Below, piece by piece: positions 2 to 63,604 of a stretch of DNA of 64,000 nt. Location: positions 2,349-66,348 of the forward strand of contig CAYJIJ010000003.1 of the NCBI GenBank assembly GCA_964370185.1. Direction: 5' to 3'. The notes under the pieces are model-generated. The model saw nothing but the letters and a program-made list of their open reading frames with translations, searched no databases and was not told the DNA's origin. Made by a program: the position numbers and the translations under genes. Position 1 is the first letter of the stretch. Each line of letters starts with the position of its first letter. The stretch is from an uncultured Oscillospiraceae bacterium. Lineage in GTDB: Bacteria; Bacillota; Clostridia; Oscillospirales; Ruminococcaceae.

Positions 2-1102
2 GTGCCAAAATCCGTACAAGCACGAAGCATTATGCAGTATGTTCACCACACAGCAGAGGAGTTTGAGCGAGAAGTGAAACTGGGGTTTAGCGAGTTTGGT
101 GAGATGACATTTGAAGAATTTGCACTTAAATGGCTGGAACGACAAACGAAATATGCTGTTAGCACAATCAATGGATACAGAAAACTTTTAGAAAAGTGTT
201 ACCCTCATATAGGCTCTATAAAGTTAAATCGGCTAAAACCAATAGCCCTTGAAAATATGCTAAATGAAATCAGAAAGCGCACATATAAAGGTAGAGTGAT
301 AAAAGAAGTCACTGTTCAAAAGCACCTTGTGGCAGTTTCTGCCGTGCTGTCCGATGCCAAGCGTAACGAGATTATACAGCGAAATCCTGCCCATATGCTT
401 GATTTGCCTATACCTGAAAAAGTAGAGCAAGTCATACCGACAGACGGTCAGATATTGGAATTTATGAACTATCTCCTCGAACTGCCTGAGCATTTTAGAT
501 ATTACTATTTTCTTGCAATATATACAGGTTGCCGCCGTGGTGAACTCTGTGCGTTTAAGTGGTCGGATTTTAAAGTGCTTGAGGGCAAGTATACATTAAT
601 AGTTAGTCGCTCTCGTTCCTCACTCCCATATAGCGGTGTGGTGGAAAAAGGCACTAAGAATAATAAAGACAGGCATATACTTCTCAGCCAAGATATTTGG
701 GATATTGTATCAAACTATTATCATTACAAGAAAAAACAGTGCGAGGAACTGGGAATAAAAATGAGCGAATATCTCTTTACCAATGATAAAGGCGAGATGA
801 TTCACCCTGATACATTCAGCAAGACGATACGGAAAATTTATGATGAGTTAGGCTTCTCAAAAGCCTTTCATCTGCATACACTTCGTCATTATTTCGTATC
901 AACAATGCTTCATAATGGTGTGGACAAGCAGACCGTAGCCGAGCTTGCAGGGCATGGCGACACCTCATTTTTGGAGCGAACTTACTGTCACCCACACACC
1001 ATAGCAAAGCAAAAAGCAGCAGTGAGTATGCACAATATACTCTTTGGGGGCACTGCATATATAGATGAAGACGGCAAAGAGCGACCAATTCGCACAGCAT
1101 AA
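2..1102 (+). CDS. Tyrosine recombinase / phage-type integrase (5' end cut by window edge)
   Basis: ORF is open to position 2. Full catalytic signature present: TGCRRGEL (Arg I), HTLRHY (HxxR), AGHGD, RTYCH (Tyr nucleophile). Confidence 0.85.
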   Translation: MPKSVQARSIMQYVHHTAEEFEREVKLGFSEFGEMTFEEFALKWLERQTKYAVSTINGYRKLLEKCYPHIGSIKLNRLKPIALENMLNEIRKRTYKGRVIKEVTVQKHLVAVSAVLSDAKRNEIIQRNPAHMLDLPIPEKVEQVIPTDGQILEFMNYLLELPEHFRYYYFLAIYTGCRRGELCAFKWSDFKVLEGKYTLIVSRSRSSLPYSGVVEKGTKNNKDRHILLSQDIWDIVSNYYHYKKKQCEELGIKMSEYLFTNDKGEMIHPDTFSKTIRKIYDELGFSKAFHLHTLRHYFVSTMLHNGVDKQTVAELAGHGDTSFLERTYCHPHTIAKQKAAVSMHNILFGGTAYIDEDGKERPIRTA

Positions 1103-1212
1103 TTGTTGCTTAAGTAGAATTAGTTTTTTTCAGTAGACATGCTACCTTCTTTGTAGTATTGTGTGTTTGGCTGATAGCACAGTCGGATAAAACTGAGGAG
1201 GAGAGATTGGGA

Positions 1213-2067
1213 ATGTCTAATAAAATTATGGGTTATGATTACAGTGGTAGGAAGATTTTTGTAGCTGAAAAAAACAACACAGAAATAATAACAGTAGCAG
1301 AATTCATACAAAAGTATCGTTATGATATTGGAGAAAATATTAACAACGAGGATATCAAACGAATATGTGAAAGGATTGGAAAGTTAAATATTAGCGAGAT
1401 ATCCCCACACATTTTAGAGAAATTTCATAGGCAAATACAAGTAGAAACAAAGCTAAGTTTCTCAGCAAGGGAGCATTTGCACAGAGTTATTTGTGAGATA
1501 TTTAAAACAGCAGTATCACTGGGGTATCTCAGTATAAACCCAGCTTTCAGAACATTTCGATACGAGAAAAAGATAGTAGGTGATGTGAAAAAGGTGGATG
1601 TAAGTGAGATAAAGACCCTTGTAAAATGCCTTGAACAAGAACTACCCAATCATAAACTTTACTACTCGCTGATAATTGCTACAGGCTTGAAGCGTACTGA
1701 AATTGTAAATCTTAGGTGGGAAGATGTAAACCTTCGCAAAAGGCAGATTAAAGGAATATCTCTCAGCAAAAATATTATCGCACAACTTAATACAATGAAA
1801 AAAGATGATGGATATATCTTCACCGGAGTTTATGGTGATGTAATGTGTCCATCATCTTTTACATATAGGCTGAATTTAATCAGAAAAAAGCATGGTCTTA
1901 AAGGCATAAACATGCACAAGATTTATAACACTGTAAATGAAATGCTAAAAATAATGTCCCATAAGGAAATGCAGAGAAAGGTTGGGTTAGTCACTGCTAC
2001 TGCTGAATTTGGTGTTAAGATAACGCAGGATTTTTTAAATCAGACAAGGCAGGAGGAGGGCGAATAA
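1213..2067 (+). CDS. Tyrosine-recombinase-like protein, catalytically degenerate
   Basis: GAGGAGGA RBS about 10 nt before ATG 1213. Integrase-like core-binding segment (LGYLSINPA) and Arg I box (ATGLKRTEIVNLRWEDV). Box II reads MHKIYN (Arg replaced by Tyr), and no LGH...Y nucleophile segment is present. Confidence 0.6.
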   Translation: MSNKIMGYDYSGRKIFVAEKNNTEIITVAEFIQKYRYDIGENINNEDIKRICERIGKLNISEISPHILEKFHRQIQVETKLSFSAREHLHRVICEIFKTAVSLGYLSINPAFRTFRYEKKIVGDVKKVDVSEIKTLVKCLEQELPNHKLYYSLIIATGLKRTEIVNLRWEDVNLRKRQIKGISLSKNIIAQLNTMKKDDGYIFTGVYGDVMCPSSFTYRLNLIRKKHGLKGINMHKIYNTVNEMLKIMSHKEMQRKVGLVTATAEFGVKITQDFLNQTRQEEGE

Positions 2068-2154
2068 CAAAGCTATTTAACCGACGAATAACACCGTATG
2101 ATTGAAAAAAAGGCAAGTTAGAAAACACAAAATTTAGTAGGAGGAGTGACCACA

Positions 2155-3330
2155 ATGGCAAGCATCAGACAGAGGGGGAACAGCTATTTAATAGTAGTGT
2201 CAAAAGGCTATGACTACACAGGAACAAGGAGAATGTCACAGCAGAAAACAGTCAAGCCACCAGAGGGTTTAACTAAAAAGCAAACTGAAAAATGGCTAAA
2301 TGAGCAGGCAGTTTTATTTGAGAAAGAGGTTAAAAACCTACCTGTAACCACAAATAAAAACATAACCTTAGCCCAGTATATAGAGATATGGCGAGTAGAT
2401 GTAGCGCCACAAAAATTAGCTAAGTCCACAATACACCGAGCAGAATCTGATATAAAAAGAATACTGCCACACCTTGGGCATTATAAACTCCGTGATTTGA
2501 AAAGCGAACATTTCAGAAATTTCTATAATCTTATGCGAAAAGAGAAGAATATACGAACTGGCGGTGTTATATCGGAAAGCAGTGTCGAAGGCATACACGG
2601 GGTAATATGCAGTATACTTAGTTCGGCAATGGAACAGGATTACATAAGCCACAACCCAGCGTGGCGTACCTACAAACCACACGGGCAAATGAGAGAAAAA
2701 GTTATCGCAGACGAAGAAACAATACAAAAAATACTCTCAGCTTTGGAAGGTGAGAGTATAAAATATGAGGTGTATTTTAAGATAATCATAGCCACAGGCA
2801 TACGCCGTGGTGAATGCACAGGGCTAATATGGGGAGATATAAATTGGGCTGATAACTCAATACATATTAGGAGAAACGCTGTAAAAGTTGAGGGGGAAGA
2901 AATATTTACCAAAGATACCAAAACAAAAAGTGGTAATAGGTATGTGTATTTTTCGGATACACTAAGTAGTCTGCTAAGGGAGTACAAAGAGTTTTGTACA
3001 GAGCATATGAAGATCTATGAGGGGCGAGAAATAAGTAGTGACACCTACTTATTTAGGCAAGAGGGTAAAGACTTGCCAATGTTACCAGACACATTCTCAA
3101 GTAGATTTAAAAAGATACTTAGAAAGCACAATCTATCCACCAACCTAAATGTACACAGTCTTCGCCACAGTGTAGCAAGTGTGCTTATTGGCAAGGGCGC
3201 AGATGTGGCGACGGTGTCAAGTTTGCTTGGTCACGCACAGGTTAGCACTACGCTTGATATTTACACCCATGCATTTGATAAGAATAGGAAGAAGGCGGCG
3301 AGGGTGCTTCATGAGGGGCTTAGGGTGTAA
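2155..3330 (+). CDS. Tyrosine recombinase / site-specific integrase
   Basis: GGAGGA RBS before ATG 2155. N-terminus MASIRQRGNSY is typical of phage integrases. Motifs ATGIRRGE, HSLRHS and LGHAQVSTTLDIYTH are present. Confidence 0.9.
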   Translation: MASIRQRGNSYLIVVSKGYDYTGTRRMSQQKTVKPPEGLTKKQTEKWLNEQAVLFEKEVKNLPVTTNKNITLAQYIEIWRVDVAPQKLAKSTIHRAESDIKRILPHLGHYKLRDLKSEHFRNFYNLMRKEKNIRTGGVISESSVEGIHGVICSILSSAMEQDYISHNPAWRTYKPHGQMREKVIADEETIQKILSALEGESIKYEVYFKIIIATGIRRGECTGLIWGDINWADNSIHIRRNAVKVEGEEIFTKDTKTKSGNRYVYFSDTLSSLLREYKEFCTEHMKIYEGREISSDTYLFRQEGKDLPMLPDTFSSRFKKILRKHNLSTNLNVHSLRHSVASVLIGKGADVATVSSLLGHAQVSTTLDIYTHAFDKNRKKAARVLHEGLRV

Positions 3331-3672: not shown

Positions 3673-4308
3673 TTATATTGTAAGTAATTCAAACGCTTTA
3701 TCTGCGGCGCTGGCGGCATCCACCGTGTAATAATCGGCACCAATATCACTGCAAAACTTCTGTGTTACAGGTGCTCCGCCTATCATGATTTTTATCTTTT
3801 TCCTAAGCCCCGCTTCTTCAAATTTTTTCACTATAATATCCAACTCGTTTAGGGTAGTTGTGAGCAGTGCTGAGCAAAGCACTATTTTGCAGTTTTCTTT
3901 GACCGCCGTTTCAAGAAATTTATCGGGATGAACATCGGTGCCAATATCAACTACCTCTATCCCCTTGCCCTCAAGCATCATCTTAACAAGATTTTTCCCT
4001 ATGTCATGCAAATCCCCTCGGACAGTGCCTATACACACCTTGCCGATATTATCGGTGCTGTTTTCTTGCAGGAGGGGTTTAAGCAATGTCATCCCAACAT
4101 TCATTGCCCTTGCGGCTACTAAAACTTCCGGCACAAACACCTCGTCGTCTTTAAACTTTCCACCGATAATATCCATTCCTACAAGCAATCCATTTTCAAG
4201 TATTTCCTTTGCGGAAAATCCATCGTTAATCGCTTTTTGCACAAGCTCTTTTATTTTTTTAGCCTTGCCATATTGTATATGTTCAGAAATTTCATTCATT
4301 ATATTCAT
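3673..4308 (-). CDS. Cobalamin-binding corrinoid protein of a methyltransferase system (MtbC/MttC/MtgC-like)
   Basis: 211 aa with an N-terminal helical cap plus a B12-binding Rossmann domain. Carries the DxHxxG ligand motif (GDLHDIGKN). AAGGAG RBS upstream. Confidence 0.85.
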   Translation of the reverse strand: MNIMNEISEHIQYGKAKKIKELVQKAINDGFSAKEILENGLLVGMDIIGGKFKDDEVFVPEVLVAARAMNVGMTLLKPLLQENSTDNIGKVCIGTVRGDLHDIGKNLVKMMLEGKGIEVVDIGTDVHPDKFLETAVKENCKIVLCSALLTTTLNELDIIVKKFEEAGLRKKIKIMIGGAPVTQKFCSDIGADYYTVDAASAADKAFELLTI

Positions 4309-4386
4309 TAAGTGTTTTGCTCCTTAGTTTAATCGGCACATGTCTATATTATTTTAATACAAATATGTAAATTGTGCAATTCGGCA

Positions 4387-4415
4387 TTGTATTTTTATCT
4401 GTCAATATGTATAAT
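4387..4415 (+). promoter_or_regulatory. Predicted sigma-70-type promoter for the AraC-family gene
   Basis: TTGTAT (4387-4392), 17-nt spacer, TATAAT (4410-4415), about 70 nt upstream of ATG 4486. Confidence 0.4.
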
Positions 4416-4485
4416 TAATTCAAAGAAGTGATAAGTATTAATGCTGTTGTATCATCACAACATATAAAGCAAGGAATAGAATTTT

Positions 4486-5784
4486 ATGAACACTAAACAC
4501 AAATACAATGATAACTTTTCCGAGTCGCTAATAATTGACTGCGCACGCTCATTCTATAATTCTACTTCACTCCCTTGTACCGTCTCAACGGACACAGGAG
4601 AAATCATTGCAGAATTTGGATATGGGGTTAAAACTTGTAATATTTGCGAAATTGCAAAAATTGGGAAAAATAAATGCCAACGCTCGCATATCTACGCCGC
4701 TTCAGAAGCCACTCGATTTGGTGGTAAGTATATATATCTTTGTTTATCGCAACTCACTTTCTTCGCCTCACCGATTATTGATGATTTTGAAAACAAGGCT
4801 AAAATTACCGTAGGCCCATTTTTAATGGTGGAAGTAGATGATTATACCGAAATAACATTGTGCGATGAACTCTCTCTTGAAAATGATAAAATCGAACAGA
4901 TTAAATCTATTCTTAGGGATGTGCCATATGTTTCTCCGGATAAAATCCGCTATTTGTCAAATTTATTGTTCATGGCGGTGGGCTTTATCAACAATATCAC
5001 AGATTCACATAAAATGCTGGAGCTTCGCAACCAAAATACCCTTGAAGAAAAATCTTCGGTATATATACATGAACTTAAAAGCAGAGATATTAATTTATAT
5101 CCTTTCGATGTCGAAGAGAAATTGCTTGACTCCATCATAGAGTCAAATCATACCAATATAGAAAAATATCTAAATGAAATTTTAGGGCATATTTTCCTCG
5201 CTTCTGGTGGGAATTTGTCCATAGCAAGCTCTATGATAATTGAGCTCTTATCACTTGTTTCTCGTGCCGCCACCAAGGTAGGTGCAGATTCTGCCGCCTG
5301 CATTATGCTCACTCATGACTATTTACAGAAATGCACCAATATTTCCTCTATGGAGGGACTGACCGCCTGTCTTTTAGACATTATCACTAATTTTACCAAC
5401 AATGCAATCCTCTCAACCTCTGTCGGTTATTCACTTCCCATACAGCGAGCCCTCAGGTATGTCCATACACATTATTCCGAAAAAATCACCCTAAAAAGCA
5501 TATCTGAAATGGTATATCTATCTCCCGATTATTTTGGCAAAATATTTAAAAAGGAAATCGGGGTTGGATTTAATAAATATCTCAATGATTTAAGGATAGA
5601 GCGCTGTCGATTACTGCTCCGTGACCCCTCTGTAAAATTTGCAAAAATTTCGCTAATAGTAGGATTTGAAGATCAGAGCTATTTTACCAAAGTGTTTAAA
5701 AAACAAACGGGAATGACCCCTTTGCAGTACCGAAAGAAGCACCAAGCTTCCGATTCTTCGCCATATCGTGCGTTTGAGACTTAA
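4486..5784 (+). CDS. AraC-family transcriptional regulator with N-terminal PocR-type sensor domain
   Basis: N-terminal Cys/His-rich PocR-like region (CNICEIAKIGKNKCQRSH...YLCLSQLTFFASPI). C-terminal double HTH (ISEMVYLSPDYFGKIFKKE...GFEDQSYFTKVFKKQTGMTPLQYR). Confidence 0.8.
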   Translation: MNTKHKYNDNFSESLIIDCARSFYNSTSLPCTVSTDTGEIIAEFGYGVKTCNICEIAKIGKNKCQRSHIYAASEATRFGGKYIYLCLSQLTFFASPIIDDFENKAKITVGPFLMVEVDDYTEITLCDELSLENDKIEQIKSILRDVPYVSPDKIRYLSNLLFMAVGFINNITDSHKMLELRNQNTLEEKSSVYIHELKSRDINLYPFDVEEKLLDSIIESNHTNIEKYLNEILGHIFLASGGNLSIASSMIIELLSLVSRAATKVGADSAACIMLTHDYLQKCTNISSMEGLTACLLDIITNFTNNAILSTSVGYSLPIQRALRYVHTHYSEKITLKSISEMVYLSPDYFGKIFKKEIGVGFNKYLNDLRIERCRLLLRDPSVKFAKISLIVGFEDQSYFTKVFKKQTGMTPLQYRKKHQASDSSPYRAFET

Positions 5785-5791
5785 AGCCCAT

Positions 5792-7141
5792 TTAGTTATT
5801 ATTTTGTAATAATACTGCATTAATCAATTCAATAATTTCTTCAATTGGTTCTTGCATATTGGCATCGGACAGTCTTTTGATAATCTCATCAATAGCCTCC
5901 GATGGCATATGTCTGTCACAAAGCATATGAAATTTTTCTTTTACCCAATTAATATCTACTGCTGTGTTGGGGTCTCCGAGTGGCTCAAAAGATTCCGAAG
6001 CGTATAATTCGCCGTTTTTGGTGCTTATAGTCACTGAGGCTAAACGCTTTGCAGGAAAATTAGCTTCAAATTCAGGATTTACACAAAACTCTACACATTC
6101 CATAAGCTTCATGGTTTCCGGATTTGTTCGCATGTAATTTTCTCCTACTTCAATACCGGTAAAGTGCCCCTCTATTAGAGTTGCACAAACAGGATAAGCC
6201 ATACTGTATTGTGCCTCGTCACTCGTAGTAGGTATGTCTGTGGATAGCTTTGTAGCTGCTTCAAATGTATGGATAAGTATTTTATTGATGTCTGATACTG
6301 CTATTTTGTGTTTTTTTTGGATGTCCATCACTGCTAATATTGCAGGCTGTGCCCATCTGCAACAAGGAAACCACTTATAGTTTAGCTTTAAAGTTTCCCA
6401 CTCATTTCCGAGTGTGTTCAAAAGATAGTTATATTTTTCATCACCTAAAATATAATTTTTACCCGTCATACCATTCAGAGCCGCTTCTACGGATAATGCA
6501 CCGATAATTATGCCAAGTTGAACGCCATCTTTGTTCATTGAAGGCGCCTCCACATTGCGCATGACAGGTGTTAGAGGGCCATGGAAATCAGCTATTGCTA
6601 AAGCAGAGGACAATGTATCCTTGTCTAAGTTTAACAGTTTGCCCATGCCGGCAGCAATTCCAATAGTTCCCCATGAGCCACTTCCATGATAAAAATTGTA
6701 ATAGTCTTGCATTGCGATTCCATGCCGTATTGACACTTCATATGCGACAACCATCGCTTCCAAAAATTCTCTATATGACGATTTATTTGCAATGGCACAC
6801 GGAAGTAATGCGCCAAAGATAACAGCTCCCGGATGTCCTTTCAAAATACTATATCCATCATCCGCATCCAGTGCATTAATACAATACGCATGTGCAGTAA
6901 TTGCCCCAATCATATTGAAAGTTTCTTCATGCCCAACAATAGGAATACTCCCATCTCGAAACAGTTTTCCTCCCATTGCAAACCCACATTCAGAAGAAAG
7001 TGTTTGCGAACCACTAACAAGACAATTGAAATGATCCACAACACTTATAATAACTCTTTGTTTTACTTCATCAGGTATATTTTCCCATTTTGAACTAATT
7101 ATAAAATCCTCCAATGAGTTTTGAATACTATTTATTCCCAT
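5792..7141 (-). CDS. MmgE/PrpD-family protein, paralogue A
   Basis: 449 aa from ATG 7141 (GGAGG 8 nt upstream). I rejected the longer TTG start at 7186. Shares blocks NALDADDG, KGHPGAV, FYHGSGSWG, PSMNKDGV, FPCCRWA and PTTSDEAQY with paralogue B. Confidence 0.8.
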   Translation of the reverse strand: MGINSIQNSLEDFIISSKWENIPDEVKQRVIISVVDHFNCLVSGSQTLSSECGFAMGGKLFRDGSIPIVGHEETFNMIGAITAHAYCINALDADDGYSILKGHPGAVIFGALLPCAIANKSSYREFLEAMVVAYEVSIRHGIAMQDYYNFYHGSGSWGTIGIAAGMGKLLNLDKDTLSSALAIADFHGPLTPVMRNVEAPSMNKDGVQLGIIIGALSVEAALNGMTGKNYILGDEKYNYLLNTLGNEWETLKLNYKWFPCCRWAQPAILAVMDIQKKHKIAVSDINKILIHTFEAATKLSTDIPTTSDEAQYSMAYPVCATLIEGHFTGIEVGENYMRTNPETMKLMECVEFCVNPEFEANFPAKRLASVTISTKNGELYASESFEPLGDPNTAVDINWVKEKFHMLCDRHMPSEAIDEIIKRLSDANMQEPIEEIIELINAVLLQNNN

Positions 7142-7180
7142 TATTAAAACCTCCGAAATCATATCTGCATAAATAACACT

Positions 7181-7229
7181 AACCAAACGGAAGCAAGCAC
7201 ATCTAATTCTTGTTTCCGTTTGGTTTTTT
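7181..7229 (+). terminator. Stem-loop plus T-run, oriented as a plus-strand terminator, in the mttB-prpD(A) intercistronic gap
   Basis: aaccaaacggaa (7181-7192) pairs with ttccgtttggtt (7214-7225), followed by tttt. On the coding (minus) strand there is no U-tract. Confidence 0.35.
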
Positions 7230-7239
7230 AAGATTAGAA

Positions 7240-8655
7240 TTATCGTTGTTCAGCAAGTTTAATTGCTTCTATTGGCACACCATTAGACAGAAGGACTTCT
7301 CGCACTTTTTCAACTCTTTCCGAATCAAGTTCATGTTGGTTGTAATTGCTAATTGCTTTATTAATATAGTCGGTTATATTATCACTTAACTGTGTTGTAG
7401 GTTTTTCAGTAACACCGCGTACACCGATTATAGGAGTATAGAGCTCATCTCTAAAATTCTCTAAAGTGTGATCTTCCACTAAATAAACGCCTCCGGCACC
7501 CAGTTCGTCAATTAAATCCTCTGCGAGAGTTTCTTCATTAAATACAGGCTCTCTCATCATACGTTTTATATAATTGAGAATTTCGAAATCTCCTATCATT
7601 TTCTCAAATGAAAATGACCCAAAACCACTTACTATACCACAACCTTGCAGTACAAGGCTAATATTATTCTGAAATGCAGTTGAAAGCACCATCATAGTTT
7701 CATATCCTGCCTGCATATCTGCAACTTTTGCATCGGTTATACCACCGCCGCCTCTGCTTGGAAGTCCATAAAATTTCCCCATAAGTGCACAATGTTTATA
7801 ACATATTGCACTCTCAGGTGAGCCTATTGCAATAGCACCTGATCGCATATCTGCACCTGTAGACTGCATTCCGTACAAGACCGGAGTTCCGGGTCTAACC
7901 ATTTGTGCAAATGCAATTCCTGCCAATATTTCTGCATTAGCAAGTGCCATAGTACCTGCTAATGTGACAGGAGATGTAACTCCGGTCATACCTACCGATG
8001 AAACGGCAAATGGTTGTCCGTATTTTGCATATGTAATAAGTGTTTCAAGCATTGCATCATCGTATTGAAGTGGAGTAATCGGATTAACGGGGCAGACAAT
8101 ACGAGGTTTTTCAATAATATTCTCATAACCGCCGTAGTACGCAGCCAATATATCCATGAGCATTTGCACTACTTTATATCGCCCTGTTCCTGCATAAATA
8201 CACTTTTCGGAGTACAGCAAGGTAGCATAAAGCATGAGTGCAACTGAATGTTCAGGGGGGACATCGCTCGGATGCACTATTTTTCCTCCTGAAATTTTAA
8301 ATTCAGGATTGTATTCCAAAATTTTTATTGCTCTAATATAATCTTCCATTGTTCCGTCCACAACTGCTCCGTTAGGTTTAGTTATGGAGGGGCTTCCACT
8401 ACCGGGAGCAATAGCGGTTTCACCTCCGCCTATTTCAACATTATATTTTGGATTTTGTGCATACATCGTAAATTTTGAAGGGGCTTTCCTTACAAAATTC
8501 ATAACCTGCTCTTCGGTGAAATATGCGGTTTCGCCTTCAACACGAATCCCGTTGTCTTTGAGTATTTCTATTGCATCAGGGTGGTGAAACTGTATGCCTG
8601 TTCGTGCAAGGATACGCATAGCAGCATCGTGAATAATTTGTAGTTTATCTTGCAT
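7240..8655 (-). CDS. MttB-superfamily (trimethylamine methyltransferase family) protein, non-pyrrolysine type
   Basis: 471 aa. The N-terminus MQDKLQIIHDAAMRILARTGIQFHHPDAIEILKDNGIRVEGETAYFTEEQV is typical of the MttB family. The ORF is uninterrupted, with no in-frame TAG. Confidence 0.85.
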   Translation of the reverse strand: MQDKLQIIHDAAMRILARTGIQFHHPDAIEILKDNGIRVEGETAYFTEEQVMNFVRKAPSKFTMYAQNPKYNVEIGGGETAIAPGSGSPSITKPNGAVVDGTMEDYIRAIKILEYNPEFKISGGKIVHPSDVPPEHSVALMLYATLLYSEKCIYAGTGRYKVVQMLMDILAAYYGGYENIIEKPRIVCPVNPITPLQYDDAMLETLITYAKYGQPFAVSSVGMTGVTSPVTLAGTMALANAEILAGIAFAQMVRPGTPVLYGMQSTGADMRSGAIAIGSPESAICYKHCALMGKFYGLPSRGGGGITDAKVADMQAGYETMMVLSTAFQNNISLVLQGCGIVSGFGSFSFEKMIGDFEILNYIKRMMREPVFNEETLAEDLIDELGAGGVYLVEDHTLENFRDELYTPIIGVRGVTEKPTTQLSDNITDYINKAISNYNQHELDSERVEKVREVLLSNGVPIEAIKLAEQR

Positions 8656-8697
8656 AAAATATTCTCCTCTTTATTACTGTGCAAAAAGCATTGCTTG

Positions 8698-10050
8698 TTA
8701 AAATATATTTTTATTTATAAATGTTATGAAATCAACCATAGGTGCACTATAGTCAACATTTGAGAGCATGGAGGTCAGTTTATCGATATCTTCTTCGGTG
8801 AAGCAATGCGAGGAAGTGTCACTAAATTTATTTCTGACCCACTCCATATTTACTCCCGATTCTTTTTCGCCCCATGGCTCACAGATATCAGAAATAACAC
8901 TTGTTCCATCTTTTTTAACTATCTCTACCCGTGCATAGCGTTTTGTAGGAAACTGTGCATCAAGTTCCTCATCAACCGCAAATTTCACACGCTCCATCAG
9001 TGCGATGACATCCGGGTTCGAATTAAGATAATCCTCACTGCATTCAACAGGTGTAAATTTCCCCTCTTTAATTGCAGCACACACCGGATAAATCATGTTG
9101 TATTGTGCTTCGTCGCAAGTTGTCGGAGCAAAAGCAGATAGTTTTGTGGCCGCACTGAATGTGCGGATGAATATAGTTTCAATATCATCAATTGATATTT
9201 TATCTTCTTTTGCAAGATGTATTGCTCCTGCTACCGGTGCATGAGCCCATCTGCAACATGGAAAATATTTAAAATAAATGTCTAAAATTTCATACTTTTC
9301 GCCTAAATTCTCGACAAGTTCAGAAAATTGCGGCTCAAGTAGATTGTAGAATTCGCCGGTTATTCCACTCATTGCGGATTCTATCGCCATAGCCCCGGTA
9401 AAGGCACCCCAAGCAACGCCGTCTTTGTTCATCGATGGGATTTCAACTATTCGCATAATTGGAGATATCGGAGCTTGATAATCGGCAATTCCAAGTGCAT
9501 TGGAAAGGTTTTTCCTATCGAGCTTATAGATTTTAGCAATGGCTGCAGCAGTGGCAAATGAGCCCCACGAGCCTGTTCCGTGATAAAAATCATAATAGCG
9601 ATGTACAGATAGTGCTGCCCTTACTGCCACTTCATACCCCACTACAAGTGCTGTTAAAAACTCTTTGTAAGAAGCACCTACTTTAAGTGCGGCGGGTAGG
9701 AGTCCTGCTGCAACTACCGCTCCGGGGTGACCTTTTATCAGGTTATGCCCATCGTCTGCGTCGAGAGCATTGACATTGTAACCATAGGCGAGAGTTGCCG
9801 CAACAAGGTTCATTCGCGTAGGAGTTCCTATTACAGGAATATTCCCACGAGCAAAAATATTTTCAGCAAGCCTTATTCCGTGTTGTGCCAAATGAGTTTT
9901 TGCCCCTGCTATCATTACATCGAAAAGGTCTACAGCACAGACGATTGCTCTTTGCTGAACATCAAGGGGGAAATCTTCCCATTTAGCATTTAGGATAAAA
10001 TTCTCAATTTTATCAGATGCTTGACGTGAATATGAATTCCATTCACTCAT
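8698..10050 (-). CDS. MmgE/PrpD-family protein, paralogue B
   Basis: 450 aa, colinear with paralogue A at roughly half identity by eye. Same conserved blocks (NALDADDG, KGHPGAV, FYHGTGSWG, PSMNKDGV, FPCCRWA, PTTCDEAQY). Confidence 0.8.
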   Translation of the reverse strand: MSEWNSYSRQASDKIENFILNAKWEDFPLDVQQRAIVCAVDLFDVMIAGAKTHLAQHGIRLAENIFARGNIPVIGTPTRMNLVAATLAYGYNVNALDADDGHNLIKGHPGAVVAAGLLPAALKVGASYKEFLTALVVGYEVAVRAALSVHRYYDFYHGTGSWGSFATAAAIAKIYKLDRKNLSNALGIADYQAPISPIMRIVEIPSMNKDGVAWGAFTGAMAIESAMSGITGEFYNLLEPQFSELVENLGEKYEILDIYFKYFPCCRWAHAPVAGAIHLAKEDKISIDDIETIFIRTFSAATKLSAFAPTTCDEAQYNMIYPVCAAIKEGKFTPVECSEDYLNSNPDVIALMERVKFAVDEELDAQFPTKRYARVEIVKKDGTSVISDICEPWGEKESGVNMEWVRNKFSDTSSHCFTEEDIDKLTSMLSNVDYSAPMVDFITFINKNIF

Positions 10051-10125
10051 TGATAGCCCACCTTTATATTTATATTTAATCCATCTATCATTTTTAATAT
10101 TTAGCTATTTCTGCTTAAATTTTAG

Positions 10126-10320
10126 ATATTGTAAGTGCTATGATACCCACTAAAGTCGCACTCTGTCATTCCGATGGAGGATACCGAAAAAGTCTGCTCG
10201 TATTTTGCAAATGTAATGAGCATCTCAGCTATTACATCGCCATACTAAAGCGTGGTAATCAGATTGACGGAGGCGACATAGTAGTGCAATAATACTGCCA
10301 TATCCAACATAACATACCAA
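10126..10320 (-). pseudogene. Decayed fragment of a second MttB-family gene
   Basis: Minus-strand translation WYVMLDMAVLLHYYVASVNLITTL*YGDVIAEMLITFAKYEQTFSVSSIGMTECDF aligns with the intact MttB segment QMLMDILAAYYGG...VCPVNPITPLQYDDAMLETLITYAKYGQPFAVSSVGMTGVTS. DNA similarity to 7975-8170 is also visible. Confidence 0.8.
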
Positions 10321-10324
10321 TAAC

Positions 10325-11710
10325 TTATTTAATACCTATTACTTCCGCTTCGCCCTCACGGATTGCATTCATGGGGCCTTTTTGCGCTCCATAAAGAACT
10401 CTGTTTGCAATAAAGCATGCGAGTCCAAACCCTGCTACCACTATACCTACAACTACATAGCCAAACTGCACCGTCATCTGTGGAATTAAGCTGATTAGGA
10501 ATAGCTCTACAATGGCCTGTACTGTATATGCCGAGCCGAAGTCGTCAAGTGTTCCGCTCTTCATTTCAGGGTCAACTATACGAAGAAGTGTAACTCCGAT
10601 AGCGATAACGCCTGTCATGTAGCCGAAAACGAAGATGGCACGCTCAAACCAGAAGTTTTTAAAGCCTCTGCGACCTACAAAGAATAGATAGAAAGATGTC
10701 CATAAAATTAAGATTGTACAGAGTAGAAGTATTGGCCATAAGAATTCAATTACAACAGATATTCTGATTGTCGCCACTCCGAATGCCGCTAAGTAGTCTG
10801 TTACGGTAGAGCCAATGCGGTCTACTGTCTTTTTATCCACATATGTGCCATAGCCTATTTTATTTAATATTAGCTGAATGAGTACGCCTGCAATCATGGT
10901 AAGGCACATCATAGGAACTTCAATCTGTGGGAAGTATTGTTTGTACCAGTTGTAAGCACCATAGCCTATACCTGTTGCGGTAAAGATTAAAGCTAAGTGC
11001 CACACGAGTGGGTCAATACTCATTGGGTGGACGGTTTCAGTACCCATTGATACACGCTTGCCCTCGGGTACTAATCCTGTTTTACACTCATCAGGTAAAT
11101 CTTTAGCACTCGATACAAGTTTAGTAGCGCCTTTTCTTGTAGCGTAGTTGATATATAGAATACCGAGGAATAATCCTACAAGCAAGCCTATTGTTGCAAA
11201 GGTTTGACCTATATATATTGCATCTTCACGACCAAGTAGGTTATTAAGAGCTCCACCGATAGAAGCTGCATATCCATGTCCGCCTACAAAGCCTGCGGAA
11301 AGAAGTAAACAAATCTCAACAAATACATCGGGAAAGAGTATTGTGATTAGAAACCCACCCACTAAAAGCGGGAAGCCAAATCCCATAAGCTCTGCACCCA
11401 TATTGAGGAAGAATGTGTTACCCACTTTATTTACAATAGTGCCCACGCTTTCTATCTTGGTTTTTCCAAGGAAAATCCCGGCACATAATACACTGATTAA
11501 AACGCCTGCGTATCCGCTTGCCGCACTGCTAAAAGGCAGTAGATTTAAAAACTGAGGTCCTAAAAAGAGTCCTGAAAGCCCTGCGATAACCGATGAGGGT
11601 ATGTAGTAATTTTGCAAAAACTTGATTTTACTGCGCAACATCTGAGCGAGAAAAAGCAGTCCTGATATAAGTGAAACATCGACTAATAAAGTATTTACTG
11701 TAAATTCCAT
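10325..11710 (-). CDS. Sodium/glutamate symporter family (GltS-like) transporter
   Basis: 461 aa polytopic membrane protein. The N-terminus (LLVDVSLISGLLFLAQMLRSKIKFLQNYYIPSSVIAGLSGL) resembles GltS/ESS-family carriers. Confidence 0.65.
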   Translation of the reverse strand: MEFTVNTLLVDVSLISGLLFLAQMLRSKIKFLQNYYIPSSVIAGLSGLFLGPQFLNLLPFSSAASGYAGVLISVLCAGIFLGKTKIESVGTIVNKVGNTFFLNMGAELMGFGFPLLVGGFLITILFPDVFVEICLLLSAGFVGGHGYAASIGGALNNLLGREDAIYIGQTFATIGLLVGLFLGILYINYATRKGATKLVSSAKDLPDECKTGLVPEGKRVSMGTETVHPMSIDPLVWHLALIFTATGIGYGAYNWYKQYFPQIEVPMMCLTMIAGVLIQLILNKIGYGTYVDKKTVDRIGSTVTDYLAAFGVATIRISVVIEFLWPILLLCTILILWTSFYLFFVGRRGFKNFWFERAIFVFGYMTGVIAIGVTLLRIVDPEMKSGTLDDFGSAYTVQAIVELFLISLIPQMTVQFGYVVVGIVVAGFGLACFIANRVLYGAQKGPMNAIREGEAEVIGIK

Positions 11711-11769
11711 AAAATTTTCCTCCTGTTATTTAATTAGTAAAAATAAAGTGAAAATGTACTTTATATGAT

Positions 11770-12150
11770 TTAAGCCATTGCTATACCGTCCATTTCTATG
11801 AGTATATTTCGCAGTCCGCAAGACACCGTAGTGCGAACAGGATAGCATTTGGGAATCATTTCTCTGTATACTTTATTCATACCGTCAAAATCGGCTGGGT
11901 TAGTCAAATATATATTGACACGTACCAATCTTTCCAAAGAAGAGCCTGCTGCTTTGAGCACACTTTCTAAATTTAGTATGCACTGCCTTGTCTGCTCCTC
12001 TATACCGCCCTCTACAACTTTTCCGGTTTCAGGGTCATCAGGTCGTTGACCCGACATGAATATCAGCTCACCCACTCTAAGCGCTTGGGAATATGGAGAA
12101 GTTGGTGGCGGTGCGTTTTCGGTGCGGATTTCAATTTTTTCTAAAGGCAT
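11770..12150 (-). CDS. ridA: RidA/YjgF-family reactive enamine/imine deaminase
   Basis: 126 aa from ATG 12150 (GAGGAGGA RBS). Motifs PPPTSPYSQA...GELIFMSGQ...VRVNIYL...PVRTTV...IEMDGIA. Confidence 0.85.
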   Translation of the reverse strand: MPLEKIEIRTENAPPPTSPYSQALRVGELIFMSGQRPDDPETGKVVEGGIEEQTRQCILNLESVLKAAGSSLERLVRVNIYLTNPADFDGMNKVYREMIPKCYPVRTTVSCGLRNILIEMDGIAMA

Positions 12151-12646: not shown

Positions 12647-12691
12647 ATAAAAAAACAACTCCAAGCCGAAAAACGGCTTGGAGTTGTTTTT
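12647..12691 (-). terminator. Rho-independent (bidirectional) terminator downstream of tRNA-Arg
   Basis: 14-bp perfect stem acaactccaagccg / cggcttggagttgt (12655-12687) flanked by an A-run and a T-run. Confidence 0.8.
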
Positions 12692-12767
12692 TGGCACGCC
12701 TGATTGGATTCGAACCAACGACACCCAGCGTCGGAGGCTGGTGCTCTATCCACTGAGCTACAGGCGC
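12692..12767 (-). tRNA. tRNA-Arg, anticodon CCG, CCA encoded
   Basis: The reverse complement GCGCCTGTAGCTCAGTGGATAGAGCACCAGCCTCCGACGCTGGGTGTCGTTGGTTCGAATCCAATCAGGCGTGCCA folds as a 76-nt cloverleaf. Anticodon loop is CTCCGAC. Confidence 0.9.
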
Positions 12768-12918: not shown

Positions 12919-12957
12919 GTCGGAGTCTGGTGCTCTATCCAGCTGAGCTACAGGCGC
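12919..12957 (-). pseudogene. Truncated tRNA-Arg(CCG) copy: 5' half only, ending at the anticodon loop
   Basis: GCGCCTGTAGCTCAGCTGGATAGAGCACCAGACTCCGAC matches the intact gene through the anticodon loop (one indel, one substitution), then diverges. No T-arm follows. The upstream flank atatatatgaaa is also duplicated. Confidence 0.8.
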
Positions 12958-13032
12958 AAATATATATGAAAACCGCATTTAAAAGAAACTTTACAAGAAA
13001 AGCATTAGAAATTAATTTGAAGTGCTAAGACA

Positions 13033-13203
13033 TTAGCGCTTGGCAGAATTTTTGCCGCCTTGATGTTTTGCATTGTTTGGATTTAATTGGTTGCTTCTAT
13101 TGTCATTTGCTGATTTATTTGCGTTATTGTTGGAATTGTTCTGATTAGCATAATCATTGCGTTGCTCTTTTGTATGCGTATCTGAAGATACATTTTTATT
13201 CAT
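13033..13203 (-). CDS. Small hydrophilic Asn-rich protein (56 aa), not in ORF track
   Basis: Strong RBS GAAAGGAGGG 6 nt before the ATG. Translation MNKNVSSDTHTKEQRNDYANQNNSNNNANKSANDNRSNQLNPNNAKHQGGKNSAKR. Confidence 0.55.
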   Translation of the reverse strand: MNKNVSSDTHTKEQRNDYANQNNSNNNANKSANDNRSNQLNPNNAKHQGGKNSAKR

Positions 13204-13442: not shown

Positions 13443-13613
13443 TTACTCAGCAGAAATTGCTTCAACAGGACATGTGCCTGCGCAAGCGCCACAATCGATA
13501 CATGTAGCGGCATCTACAACATAAGTGCTATCACCAGCAGAAATAGCGCTTACTGGACATTCACCTTCGCATGCGCCACAGCTGATGCAAGCATCGCTAA
13601 TAACATAAGCCAT
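13443..13613 (-). CDS. fdx: Clostridial-type 2x[4Fe-4S] ferredoxin (56 aa), not in ORF track
   Basis: MAYVISDACISCGACEGECPVSAISAGDSTYVVDAATCIDCGACAGTCPVEAISAE contains two CxxCxxCxxxCP motifs. AAGGAGG RBS upstream. Confidence 0.92.
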   Translation of the reverse strand: MAYVISDACISCGACEGECPVSAISAGDSTYVVDAATCIDCGACAGTCPVEAISAE

Positions 13614-27612: not shown

Positions 27613-28014
27613 TCTGCCCACCCCCACTTAAAGATAAATACTATCAAGTTGTTGATATTGTAATTATAATACATGCATATACAGTTTAGTATAACACAAA
27701 TAAGAAATTTTTGTATACATTTTTTTGCGGTAATTTTGCTTTGAAAAGTGAAAATATTACACTTTTATTACCGCAAAACGATAAAGGGAAAAAACTGCCA
27801 CTATATTGCCCCACATTAGCCTTTGATTTGCCATTTGAAAAAATAGTAGAATATAATAGGAAAAAGCCGAATTATTGCCATTAATAGGGAATTTTGATTG
27901 ACTAAGGAAGCGGTTTTGTGGTAGAATTAAGGGATTGAAAAGGTGGAAAAATCTTTTTGTTCCTCGGTGATTTTTTGAATAAATAAATCATCAAATAAAA
28001 TGAATGAGGTTGTA

Positions 28015-28614
28015 ATGTATATAAATTTTCTTAAACCAATAATAGATTTTGTATTAGCTGTTATTGGTATATTTTTGCTATCACCACTATTTTTAGTTTT
28101 GATAATAATGATAAAAATTGAATCAAAGGGTCCGATTTTTTTCACACAGAAAAGAGTTGGCAAAAATAAAAAACACTTTAAAATTCTTAAATTTCGCACA
28201 ATGAAGATTGATACCCCAAAAGACTGTCCTACACATTTGCTTGAAAATCCAGAACAATATATAACAAGAGTGGGAAAATTTTTGCGCAAAACTTCGCTTG
28301 ACGAATTGCCACAGTTTTTCAATCTTCTATTTTTTCAAATGAGTATAGTAGGGCCAAGGCCTGCGCTATGGAATCAGTTTGACTTAATAGATGAGCGTGA
28401 TAAATATGGTGCGAATAATATCATGCCAGGGATTACTGGCTGGGCACAAGTCAACGGACGAGATGAGCTTGAAATCCCTTTAAAGGCTAAATTTGACGGT
28501 GAATATGTAGAGAAGATGAGTTTCTTTTTTGATGTAAAATGTCTTTTCCTCACGGTGTATAAAGTCTTAATTAGCGATGGAGTAAAAGAAGGCAAAGAGG
28601 TGGTGCACAAGTGA
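28015..28614 (+). CDS. Undecaprenyl-phosphate sugar phosphotransferase (small PglC/WbaP-C-type initiating transferase)
   Basis: Re-entrant helix plus the KFRTM...DELPQ...VGPRP motifs of the bacterial sugar transferase family. Confidence 0.85.
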   Translation: MYINFLKPIIDFVLAVIGIFLLSPLFLVLIIMIKIESKGPIFFTQKRVGKNKKHFKILKFRTMKIDTPKDCPTHLLENPEQYITRVGKFLRKTSLDELPQFFNLLFFQMSIVGPRPALWNQFDLIDERDKYGANNIMPGITGWAQVNGRDELEIPLKAKFDGEYVEKMSFFFDVKCLFLTVYKVLISDGVKEGKEVVHK

Positions 28615-29483
28615 AGCGTATTCTCATAACAGGGAAAAATAGTTATATTGGAAATTCGTTTGAGGAGTATATGCAGAAATTTGATGGCTATCAGATAGAT
28701 ACTGTCGATATGATGAGCGACACTTGGCAGGAAAAGAATTTTTCAGAGTATGATGTGGTTTTTCATGTGGCAGGGATTGCTCATTCAGACAACGGTAAGA
28801 TATCACTTGAAAAATCAGGGCAATATTATAATGTAAACTGTGAATTAGCAGAAAAGACAGCCCGAAAGTGCAAATCAGAAAAAGTAGGACAGTTTATTTA
28901 TATGAGCAGTATGATTATTTTTGGAGAGAGTTCTAAAATTGGAAAAGAAAAAATGATCACAAGCGATACACCCCCATCACCCATAAATGCATATGGAGAT
29001 AGTAAATTACAAGCAGAGATTAGACTAAAAGAATTAGATGATGAAAATTTTAATATAGTTATTTTACGCCCACCAATGGTTTATGGGAAAGATAGTAAAG
29101 GCAACTATCCAATACTTTCTAAAATCGCAAACAAACTACCAATATTTCCGAATGTAAATAATAAGCGTAGTATGATTTATATAGAAAATCTTTGTGAATT
29201 TTTAAGACTTTTGATTTTAAATAACGAGAGTGGTGTTTTCATGCCACAAAATGAAGAGTATGTAAGCACAAGTAATATGGTGAAATGCATTGCAAAATGT
29301 AGTGGGAAAAATATAATTTTAACAAGAATATTTAATCCTGCACTGTATATCATCTCTCATTTTATGAGCGTTGCAAATAAAGCATTCGGAACACTAACAT
29401 ACGAAATGAGTCTTAGCGATTATAGGGAAAATTATAGGATATGTGATTTTGAAGAGAGTATAAGAAGAACTGAAAGGAATTAG
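28611..29483 (+). CDS. NAD-dependent epimerase/dehydratase-family protein
   Basis: ILITGKNSYIGNSF Rossmann start and YGDSKLQAE (YxxxK). GTG start overlaps the upstream stop. Confidence 0.7.
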   Translation: MKRILITGKNSYIGNSFEEYMQKFDGYQIDTVDMMSDTWQEKNFSEYDVVFHVAGIAHSDNGKISLEKSGQYYNVNCELAEKTARKCKSEKVGQFIYMSSMIIFGESSKIGKEKMITSDTPPSPINAYGDSKLQAEIRLKELDDENFNIVILRPPMVYGKDSKGNYPILSKIANKLPIFPNVNNKRSMIYIENLCEFLRLLILNNESGVFMPQNEEYVSTSNMVKCIAKCSGKNIILTRIFNPALYIISHFMSVANKAFGTLTYEMSLSDYRENYRICDFEESIRRTERN

Positions 29484-29494
29484 CATATAAAAAT

Positions 29495-30739
29495 ATGAAG
29501 AGCATTTGGATTTTTTGTCAGCATACCTCGCCACCCGAGCATGGACATTTTAATAGACATTTTAATTTTTCGGTCAACTTAAAGAAAAAAGGCTATGAGC
29601 CTACTATTTTTGCAGGAAGTGTGCCCCATAATACGGATACACAACTAATAAAAGGTAAAGAAAAGTTTATGATATATGATAAGCATGGTTTTGATTATGT
29701 TTACATAAAAACTTGTCTTTATAATAAAAGTGGTAAAAAAAGGCTTATCGCAATGCTCGAGTATTATTTTGGATTATTTACCACATATAAAAAATATCTC
29801 AAGCCGGGAAATGCTAAACCAGATGTGATAATTGGTTCAAGTGTACATCCACTCGCCTGTGTGGCAGGGATACTAATTGCAAAAAAATTAGGTGTACCAT
29901 GCATATCAGAAATTAAAGATCTATGGCCTGAGAGCATAGTTGCCTATTCAAGCCGTTTTACCAAAAAACATCCACTTATTAAGCTTTTGTATATGCTCGA
30001 AAAGTGGATTTATAAAAAATCGGACGCTCTTATCTTCACTATGCAGGGCGGAGCGGATTATATAAAAGACATGGGCTGGGATAAAGCTATTGACCTATCA
30101 AAAGTTCACCATATAAACAACGGTGTGGACTTAGAAGCTTTTGACTACAATAGAGATAATTTTATAACAGACGACACCGACCTTGAAAATGACGATATAT
30201 TTAAAGTTGTTTACACAGGTTCAATAAGACGAGTGAATAATCTTGGTATATTACTCGATGCGGCAAAGCTTATAACAGAGCCTAAAATAAAATTACTCAT
30301 TTGGGGTGGTGGCGATGAGCTTGAAGCATTAAAGCAGAGGGTTTTGGAGGAAAATATCACGAATGTGCTTTTTAATGGTAGTGTGGATAAAAAATATGTG
30401 CCCTATATTTTAAGTAGGGCTGATGTGAATTTGTCCCATTATTCCTATTCTGAAATAAATCGATATGGCACAAGTAGAAATAAAATGTTTGAGTACTTAG
30501 CTTCTAATAAACCAGTAATTTCCACCGAGTGGGATAATTATGAGCTTATTAAAAAGTATTTTTGTGGAGTTTCAATGCAATGTGATAGTATGGAAGAAAT
30601 TGCTTCACTTATAAATCAAATGTATAATATCGATGATGCCACAAAAAAAATCATGGCAACTAACGCCCGAGAAGCCGCCAAACAATACGATTTTAAAGTC
30701 CTTACAAGAAAACTGATAGATATAGTAGAAAAATTATAA
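29495..30739 (+). CDS. Glycosyltransferase family 4 (WbuB-like)
   Basis: 414 aa GT-B fold. The N-terminus IWIFCQHTSPPEHGHFNRHFNF is typical of the WbuB-like subgroup. Confidence 0.7.
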   Translation: MKSIWIFCQHTSPPEHGHFNRHFNFSVNLKKKGYEPTIFAGSVPHNTDTQLIKGKEKFMIYDKHGFDYVYIKTCLYNKSGKKRLIAMLEYYFGLFTTYKKYLKPGNAKPDVIIGSSVHPLACVAGILIAKKLGVPCISEIKDLWPESIVAYSSRFTKKHPLIKLLYMLEKWIYKKSDALIFTMQGGADYIKDMGWDKAIDLSKVHHINNGVDLEAFDYNRDNFITDDTDLENDDIFKVVYTGSIRRVNNLGILLDAAKLITEPKIKLLIWGGGDELEALKQRVLEENITNVLFNGSVDKKYVPYILSRADVNLSHYSYSEINRYGTSRNKMFEYLASNKPVISTEWDNYELIKKYFCGVSMQCDSMEEIASLINQMYNIDDATKKIMATNAREAAKQYDFKVLTRKLIDIVEKL

Positions 30740-30760
30740 TATAGAGGAGCAAAAAACAAG

Positions 30761-31927: not shown

Positions 31928-31937
31928 AGGGGAAAGT

Positions 31938-33628: not shown

Positions 33629-33648
33629 CTACAATGGGGAGAGTATAT

Positions 33649-37372: not shown

Positions 37373-37392
37373 ATCATTAAATCAGGAGAAAA

Positions 37393-39943: not shown

Positions 39944-40050
39944 GTGTATCTGTAGTTAATAGAAAATATGTATAAAAAACTAAACAAAAGCGGTGAGTAA
40001 ATATTAAAAAAGAATATAACAAGATATTTAAAAGTTTATTTGGATATTCA

Positions 40051-42635: not shown

Positions 42636-42672
42636 GACTACATCCCTCCTTTCTGTCTAAATTGTAGAGTGT

Positions 42673-63590: not shown

Positions 63591-63604
63591 CTTAAAAATC
63601 CTCC

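Follow-up and report, generated by a model that had tools for sequence, protein, structure and literature searches.

The locus described here occupies positions 3673–12150 of a 64,000-nucleotide stretch of DNA from an uncultured Oscillospiraceae bacterium (hereafter the window, i.e., the whole 64-kb stretch analyzed). It places the gene for a methyltransferase of the MttB superfamily between the genes for two MmgE/PrpD-fold proteins, PrpD-A and PrpD-B, in the company of genes for a corrinoid protein, a PocR-AraC regulator, a GltS-like carrier and a RidA-family protein. Its parts, a non-pyrrolysine MttB system and PrpD-fold proteins, are of known kinds; their combination and the PrpD subfamily are undescribed. 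We tentatively read it, with slightly less than even confidence, as an accessory locus for B12-dependent methyl transfer from a quaternary (N-methylated) amine that bears a carboxylate, with the PrpD pair acting by Cα-proton chemistry. The recurrence of MttB-PrpD pairings in four further loci suggests that a methylated acid-bearing amine is broken down anaerobically by a route not yet described.

Non-pyrrolysine MttB enzymes demethylate dietary quaternary amines in the gut without the release of trimethylamine. About half a dozen substrates are known for the superfamily, and many of its paralogues are unassigned. The results below include direct observations of the gene content and family membership of the locus, of a non-MtgB active-site signature in its MttB, and of the recurrence of PrpD-like genes with MttB or with the transporters BCCT or OpuA. 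The list of open reading frames (ORFs) and their translations clearly showed that all seven genes lie where the initial annotation of this DNA had placed them, every motif quoted there being present. The same annotation knew of no described pathway joining these families, and this was upheld by our literature search, where MttB and PrpD appeared nowhere together (the sole co-mention of MttB and MmgE concerns methanogen phylogeny). The search found opine dehydrogenase and PrpD nowhere together either.

The MttB paralogue and its corrinoid protein

The mttB gene (7240–8655, minus strand) consists of 471 uninterrupted codons, hence without an in-frame TAG, and its 471-aa product gives a full-length match to PF06253 (MTTB; residues 2–453, 372 bits vs. 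a cut-off of 25). With an ORF free of any stop and a TIGR02369 score of 294 bits vs. a cut-off of 525, the protein is a non-pyrrolysine member of the superfamily, just as had been proposed from the letters of the sequence. Its best match among solved structures is MtgB of Desulfitobacterium hafniense (9YCE/2QNE), with 345 bits, a gap-free alignment over 416 residues and about 40% identity. In MtgB, Y97 and F356 hold the quaternary nitrogen of glycine betaine, while R312 and H348 hold its carboxylate; R312 is kept across MttB members acting on other quaternary amines, and the Y97A, H348A and H348N substitutions increase the Michaelis constant (Km) from 26- to about 360-fold (PMC13080624).

At the positions of Y97, R312, H348 and F356, the window MttB bears S-R-Q-F, so that two of the four residues of the glycine betaine site are kept, and this signature is unique among 126 aligned relatives. 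A neighbor-joining distance tree built without bootstrap places the protein on a long branch of its own, in a group that does not include D. hafniense MtgB. Moreover, in a collection of 5.8 billion proteins, no protein is more than 49% identical to it, the nearest being at 48–49%. The three lines of evidence agree with the earlier view that the enzyme is not assignable to MtgB. The features shared with the MtgB/MtgC system are a non-pyrrolysine MttB TIM-barrel with a cognate DxHxxG corrinoid protein and the retained R312 and F356; the window system differs in Ser and Gln in place of Y97 and H348, the isolated branch, the lack of an adjacent gene for methylcorrinoid:tetrahydrofolate methyltransferase (MT2), and the position between two PrpD-fold genes. 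As judged by these residues, the probable ligand of the window MttB is a methylammonium compound that bears a carboxylate and is not glycine betaine. With respect to MtpB, MtcB, MtyB and MthB of Eubacterium limosum, its distance is bounded only by the database-wide ceiling of 49% identity.

The closest MttB relatives (48–49% identity; loci L001, L003 and L004) have BCCT, a second MttB, a corrinoid protein, the activase RACo and helix-turn-helix proteins as neighbors, and no PrpD. Synteny at the orthologue level through these three loci was uninformative for the window paralogue, their neighborhoods being devoid of PrpD, and an exact-sequence look-up of the window MttB matched no contig.

The corrinoid protein (3673–4308, minus strand; 211 aa) matches the Pfam domains B12-binding_2 (64 bits) and B12-binding (84 bits) and carries the DxHxxG motif as GDLHDIGKN. 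It thereby combines the cap and the Rossmann B12-binding domain with DxHxxG that characterize methyltransferase-cognate corrinoid proteins. Its NCBIfam scores lie below the cut-offs (the best is MtgC_2, 204 vs. 370 bits; TIGR02370 gives 195 vs. 215). By its domain composition, it is the predicted methyl acceptor for MttB.

The PrpD-fold pair

PrpD-A (8698–10050, minus strand; 450 aa) and PrpD-B (5792–7141, minus strand; 449 aa) both match PF03972 and PF19305, the N- and C-terminal MmgE_PrpD domains, and are 43–44% identical to each other. The ORF of PrpD-B extends to 7186; the likely start is the ATG at 7141, which is preceded by GGAGG. All six sequence blocks noticed at the outset, NALDADDG, KGHPGAV, FYHG[ST]GSWG, PSMNKDGV, FPCCRWA and PTT[SC]DEAQY, are found in both translations. 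PrpD-A belongs to a small betaine-associated clade with orthologues at 53–64% identity. The database search gave no orthologue of PrpD-B, whose best matches are members of the A-clade (45–48%), and PrpD-B is therefore a lineage-specific divergent duplicate.

Neither protein is an ordinary PrpD. The 2-methylcitrate dehydratase models TIGR02330, NF006943 and NF042438 yielded merely 21–31 bits vs. cut-offs of 458, 575 and 950, respectively. The PrpD-A AlphaFold model (mean predicted local distance difference test score, pLDDT, of 92.6) superposes on the Bacillus subtilis "IRG1" (bsIRG1, 7BRA) and on iminodisuccinate (IDS) epimerase with TM-scores of 0.80–0.81, and on true PrpD with lower ones (0.62–0.77). 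In sequence scores against solved structures, bsIRG1 is the best, IDS epimerase reaches 78 bits, and the chains of cis-aconitate decarboxylase (CAD) 37–45 bits. Both proteins keep the family-invariant D97, D99, D100, H108, Y153, H157, K209, K261, C266 and R267, among them the acid-base and carboxylate-binding positions of the family. C266 corresponds in the alignment to a Cys of both IDS epimerase and bsIRG1 and to His277 of CAD; the identity with CAD/IRG1 was rejected on account of this residue and the low scores of the CAD chains. By sequence and, for PrpD-A, modeled fold, the pair represents an uncharacterized subfamily nearest to IDS epimerase and bsIRG1.

These data bear on an alternative according to which nothing in the locus is unusual: the methyltransferase would be of the MtgB type, acting on glycine betaine, and the PrpD pair would be 2-methylcitrate dehydratases of a propionate pathway. 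In its favor are the 345 bits and the identity of about 40% that make MtgB the best match among solved structures, and the label "2-methylcitrate dehydratase" that some databases attach to the PrpD relatives; the pair also shares Pfam domains and overall fold with the true dehydratase. Nevertheless, it is very improbable: the window MttB has Ser and Gln in place of Y97 and H348, where substitutions in MtgB are so costly in Km; it does not group with MtgB in the tree; the PrpD equivalog models fail widely; and no prpB or prpC was found within the window, where Pfam was run on most large ORFs. An ordinary MtgB together with an ordinary PrpD is essentially excluded by this set of observations.

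All characterized MmgE/PrpD enzymes have substrates with a 2-substituted succinate skeleton and pass through an enolate; of the four activities known for the family, two are epimerizations that proceed in this way, and the function of bsIRG1 is not known (PMC12290011). IDS epimerase (Agrobacterium tumefaciens BY6, 2HP0/2HP3) inverts Cα of an N-substituted aspartate. The window proteins resemble it in fold (TM-score 0.81), in the DxDD...GHP motif, and in H157, K261 and the Cys at C266; they differ in overall sequence (about 20% identity), in Arg200 replacing the canonical Lys of TKPxH, and in genomic partners, the comparison being one of resemblance alone. The (S)-(R)-methylsuccinate isomerase PA0881, likewise of the PrpD fold, is cofactor-independent and acts via an enolate (PMC12290011). 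PA0881 and bsIRG1, the latter being the best match of the window PrpD in both sequence and structure, are only about 21% identical to it and reside in gene clusters of their own, with itaconate or methylsuccinate genes. Considering these relatives, the window pair would most likely be cofactor-independent epimerases.

Genomic context of the PrpD subfamily

Motif-based scans revealed at least 509 relatives in GTDB species representatives and 185 in metagenome contigs. The neighborhoods of 170 loci were surveyed by tblastn with probe proteins, and 171 PrpD-like proteins were clustered. In large clade 1 (n = 95), an Octopine_DH-like gene adjoins the PrpD-like gene in 70 of the 95 loci, and GltS or GltS-like carriers, heterodimeric aconitase-X (AcnX) or OCD are often found as well. 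The three inspected loci of large clade 2 (n = 65) have an AlaDh_PNT-family dehydrogenase as a neighbor (L043, 8809–11320; L051, 7653–11326; L057, 8748–11305), with M20 peptidase or Opp-type ABC genes nearby. The small clades comprise nine loci, i.e., the window with its two proteins, L005, L006, L008, L041, L085, L092, L093 and L094, and here the typical neighbors are BCCT or OpuA betaine-type transporters, or MttB. Scans of GTDB species representatives and JGI metagenomes for A-clade loci gave members of the large clades only, at no more than 46% identity.

The association of the small clades with quaternary-amine genes is strong in numbers. MttB, BCCT or OpuAC lies within 5 kb in seven of eight small-clade loci (window excluded) and in 3 of the 160 large-clade loci (Fisher p = 1.4e-9), and MttB alone in three of eight vs. 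one of 160 (p = 3e-4), these p values being descriptive, as the clade split was made after the data had been seen. Four loci unite MttB with a PrpD-like gene. In L085, the genes for a carrier, Octopine_DH, PrpD and two MttBs follow each other on one strand with gaps of 21–65 bp; L093 contains MttB, PrpD-A, an isochorismatase-type hydrolase, BCCT, a second PrpD and a TRAP transporter; L115 contains MttB, AcnX and PrpD; and in L092, OCD and MttB are divergent from AcnX and DUF1638, beside a GltS-like carrier and PrpD-A. GltS-like carriers adjoin PrpD-like genes in 15 of the 170 loci, while neither RidA nor a corrinoid gene does so in any of them. At the level of families, the co-conservation expected for the locus is seen for MttB (L085, L092, L093, L115) and the carrier, and not for RidA and the corrinoid protein.

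Residues specific for the window's clade are more aromatic and less charged than their counterparts (Y89, Y91, Y156, W162 and W214), and Ser and Leu take the place of the Lys and Glu that the other clades have at alignment positions of about 306 and 238. Such replacements would be compatible with a cation–π site, though this is unproven.

Several features of the surveyed loci deserve separate mention. The Octopine_DH-like partner of clade 1 (413 aa) is 65–96% identical across Bacillota, Synergistaceae, Desulfovibrionaceae and Fusobacterium; the gene pair is exemplified by L023 (8693–11323) of Acidaminobacter hydrogenoformans and was met among loci L009–L091 and L095–L174, and no curated NCBIfam model names either protein. 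The AlaDh_PNT pairing is its non-homologous counterpart. Heterodimeric AcnX adjoins PrpD-like genes in 13 loci, including L092 (4149–5854), L095, L096, L099, L101, L109, L115 and L148, and OCD/mu-crystallin imine-reductase-type genes do so in six of the 170. Furthermore, three PrpD-A orthologues are situated within polysaccharide-biosynthesis loci (L006, 7651–14150; L008, 7554–12849; L094, 1134–7006), with an OpuA-type ABC or BCCT transporter on one side and a VimE-like deacetylase (DUF7033) on the other, a setting that hints at glycan decoration with an imported betaine-like compound.

Proposed function of the locus

From the active-site signature of MttB and the context of the PrpD subfamily, we infer the substrate class, the epimerase chemistry and the order of steps as follows. 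The GltS-like carrier would import a carboxylate-bearing quaternary amine, and the non-pyrrolysine MttB would transfer one of its N-methyl groups to the 211-aa corrinoid protein in the Co(I) state, with the methylcorrinoid:tetrahydrofolate methyltransferase and the reductive activase acting from elsewhere in the genome. The two PrpD-fold proteins would abstract the Cα proton of the same molecule or of its demethylated product; as an epimerase, PrpD might either supply MttB with the stereoisomer that it requires or turn the product into one that can be assimilated. The PocR-AraC protein would regulate the genes of the locus, and RidA would be peripheral.

Racemases dependent on pyridoxal 5′-phosphate cannot act on N-blocked (N-substituted) amino acids, so that an epimerase without a cofactor makes chemical sense for such substrates. 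In the large clades, the partners belong to two unrelated enzyme families, Octopine_DH-like and AlaDh_PNT. Characterized members of both, namely opine dehydrogenases and the alanine dehydrogenase relatives saccharopine dehydrogenase and carboxyethylornithine synthase, act at the C–N bond of N-(carboxyalkyl) amino acids. The betaine transporter or MttB partner of the small clades is in keeping with a replacement of N-carboxyalkyl by N-methyl (quaternary) substrates. Within the window, Pfam searches on most large ORFs disclosed no opine dehydrogenase.

The initial annotation had seen the sequence of events otherwise: demethylation would come first, and a possibly heteromeric PrpD pair would then process the product, with RidA detoxifying an intermediate. 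Spelled out, the pair would act on the acidic product as a dehydratase, C–N lyase or decarboxylase, and RidA would hydrolyze the resulting enamine or imine. Dehydration and decarboxylation are indeed established MmgE/PrpD chemistries (PMC12290011), ridA precedes the co-oriented carrier gene by 59 bp, and the enzymes found beside PrpD-like genes include AcnX (in L092 and L115 together with MttB) and the imine-reductase-type OCD. We nevertheless consider this order of events unlikely, if not markedly so. RidA is absent from the other PrpD-like loci of the survey; the nearest structures and the common Cys266 are of the IDS-epimerase/bsIRG1 type, not of PrpD or CAD; the true-PrpD models reach only 21–31 bits; and the dehydrogenase partners of the large clades fit an epimerase feeding a stereospecific enzyme at least equally well. 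Taken together, the subfamily context and the IDS epimerase structures are better accommodated by Cα epimerization of an N-substituted amino acid than by downstream processing of a di- or tricarboxylate.

A precedent for an enzyme that conditions the substrate of an MttB member is provided by choline metabolism in E. limosum, where MthB is co-localized with the kinase MthK, a pairing that recurs across genomes (PMC12155760). By analogy, the MttB of the window would likewise stand beside a possible substrate-conditioning enzyme. The MthB/MthC/MthA/MthK system differs in that its partner is a kinase, its substrate is phosphocholine and MT2 is in the cluster, whereas the window has PrpD partners and no MT2. 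A recurrent partnership of MttB with a second enzyme family would extend the MthK finding, according to which substrates may be modified around demethylation, and would offer a genomic handle for new classes of MttB substrates.

Another analogy comes from an aerobic hydroxyproline-betaine pathway, which Zhao et al. reportedly described in 2013 and which is said to involve the 2-epimerase HpbD and a Rieske-type N-demethylase. A transporter, a cofactor-independent betaine epimerase and N-demethylation would be common to both; the aerobic pathway uses an epimerase of the enolase superfamily and O2-requiring demethylases, whereas the window has a PrpD-fold candidate and a B12-dependent demethylase. 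One might go further and regard the CCRWA/AQYN PrpD subfamily as new cofactor-independent Cα-epimerases for N-blocked amino acids, with the large clades acting on opine-type imino acids together with opine dehydrogenases and the small clade on betaines; the window locus would then be an anaerobic B12-dependent counterpart of the aerobic epimerase-demethylase betaine pathways and would define a new betaine class for MttB. This extended version is speculative, and we hold it to be doubtful as a whole. Still, an uncharacterized PrpD subfamily that is so widespread, with its at least 509 relatives in GTDB species representatives, and consistently paired with opine-type dehydrogenases in amino-acid-fermenting anaerobes is a clear target for enzyme discovery.

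Several observations weigh against the reading of the locus as a methyl-transfer system with a Cα-epimerizing PrpD pair. We know of no natural dicarboxylic betaine that would be an obvious candidate for the substrate, and all known MmgE/PrpD substrates contain a C4-dicarboxylate (PMC12290011). The PrpD subfamily is known from sequence and predicted structure alone, its aromatic positions are placed by alignment, and Arg200 stands in for the canonical Lys. A complete corrinoid system (methyltransferase, corrinoid protein, MT2 and activase) is not encoded within the window. As had been stated earlier, MT2 and a RamA/RACo activase are missing from it, as judged by Pfam on most ORFs of at least 150 aa and by a tblastn search with a RACo probe, which gave no match. 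MttB beside PrpD-like genes is rare across the subfamily (4 of 170 loci), and the linked MttBs are only 22–46% identical to each other, so the link is one between families, not orthologues. Finally, the six locus proteins that were looked up (all but RidA) each occurred once among about 15 billion sequences. Since the exact locus was seen a single time, co-conservation at the orthologue level cannot be shown.

Organization of the locus

On the minus strand, the string begins with the gene for the RidA-family protein (11770–12150; 126 aa from the ATG at 12150, which agrees with the earlier end coordinate, the ORF reaching to a GTG at 12180). RidA matches Pfam Ribonuc_L-PSP (107 bits) and exceeds the TIGR00004 cut-off (112.1 vs. 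106.25 bits). Next comes the gene for the secondary carrier (10325–11710, minus strand; 461 aa), whose Pfam Glt_symporter match is weak and partial (45.8 bits vs. a cut-off of 26, residues 139–348 only) and for which no match was obtained among NCBIfam models. With only 26 bits in BLASTP against canonical GltS and 44% identity to the carrier beside PrpD-A in L092, it is, by these scores, a member of a GltS-related but distinct family. The genes for PrpD-A, MttB and PrpD-B follow, the spacers being 59 bp between ridA and the carrier gene, 274 bp between the latter and prpD-A, 42 bp between prpD-A and mttB, and 98 bp between mttB and prpD-B.

The regulator gene (4486–5784, plus strand; 432 aa) encodes a PocR sensor and an AraC-type helix-turn-helix (Pfam PocR, HTH_AraC and HTH_18; 65 bits with Pfam PocR and 121 bits with the NCBIfam PocR model, whose cut-off is 500). 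It converges on prpD-B, the two stop codons being 7 bp apart, and is divergent from the corrinoid gene. The intergenic region between the divergent genes (4309–4485) presumably holds the promoters of both, its promoter-like matches being at the consensus level only.

We infer the operon structure from this arrangement. The corrinoid gene lies beyond a regulator gene on the opposite strand and is therefore probably not on the mttB transcript, so that a single transcript including it probably does not exist. The 274-bp gap between the carrier gene and prpD-A (10051–10324) also speaks against one transcript for the whole string and may contain an internal promoter, with one promoter-like consensus match at 10169–10140 on the minus strand. 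A 17-bp inverted repeat in the mttB–prpD-B spacer (7181–7225, minus strand), forming a hairpin with a weak T-run after the stem, might act as a weak attenuator or mark a site of RNA processing. Scans of the window for terminators and promoters gave counts close to the shuffled expectation and were not informative; the Rfam scan revealed a tRNA as the sole match and no riboswitch or other RNA.

Surroundings of the locus

Three tandem tyrosine recombinase genes (366, 302 and 394 aa) occupy positions 2–3330 on the plus strand, directly left of the locus; the trio resembles a recombinase-in-trio element, and its first member may be cut by the window edge. To the right, a 470-bp AT-rich gap is followed by a perfect 19-bp hairpin (12650–12692) and by tRNA-Arg(CCG) (12692–12767, minus strand). 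A 46-nt copy of the 5′ half of this tRNA, 96% identical, is located at 12919–12965 and may have been left behind by an old recombination at the locus edge. The search for att-type direct repeats of the tRNA 3′ end found none, the only duplicate being that of the 5′ half, and base composition showed no GC anomaly over the locus.

Beyond the tRNA region, a ferredoxin gene precedes housekeeping genes, and the flanking Era, RecO, HolB, cyclic di-AMP receptor and ferredoxin have relatives at least 90% identical in other assemblies. The relatives of the first four share one 43.6-kb contig of a related metagenome-assembled genome (L175; GCA_964371155.1, CAYJLI010000013.1), which ends about 220 bp past its ferredoxin gene, where the tRNA/locus region of the window begins. 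The named cluster-mates of two flanking proteins stem from Oscillospiraceae and Ruminococcus metagenome-assembled genomes, in line with an Oscillospiraceae-like source. As the locus proteins are singletons while several flanking proteins have relatives of at least 90% identity, the locus looks accessory.

Such surroundings raise the question of chance juxtaposition in a variable region, where a betaine set (MttB, corrinoid protein and PocR-AraC) would have come to lie beside an imino- or dicarboxylic-acid set (GltS-like carrier, the two PrpD-like proteins and RidA). The position between the recombinase trio and a tRNA-Arg with a partial self-duplicate, the contrast between singleton locus proteins and several well-represented housekeeping neighbors, the non-orthologous nature of the PrpD-linked MttBs, the abundance of MttB paralogues in such anaerobes and the separate transcription unit of the corrinoid gene are all in keeping with this possibility. 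It is less easily reconciled with the location of mttB between both prpD-like genes, co-oriented with them and separated from them by 42 and 98 bp, with the tight MttB/PrpD-like strings in four independent loci, and with the strong enrichment of quaternary-amine markers in exactly the PrpD clade of the window. We judge a chance juxtaposition distinctly unlikely.

Besides a polysaccharide cluster and polyamine genes, the remainder of the window consists of housekeeping genes. An ORF of 56 aa, in which Asn, Gln and Lys are very abundant, is found at 13033–13203 on the minus strand, between the tRNA region and the ferredoxin gene (13443–13613; 56 aa). The genes at 57147–63770 (minus strand) resemble those of polyamine biosynthesis, with an Orn/DAP/Arg decarboxylase-type, a saccharopine-dehydrogenase-type and an arginase-family protein, an Orn/Lys/Arg decarboxylase and an AdoMet decarboxylase-like protein. 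The polysaccharide cluster (28000–44274) encodes GT4 glycosyltransferases, a UDP-sugar dehydrogenase, a DegT aminotransferase, Wzy, a flippase, and MBOAT and DHHW proteins, and between about 36 and 42 kb of the window the GC content drops to 0.30–0.33.

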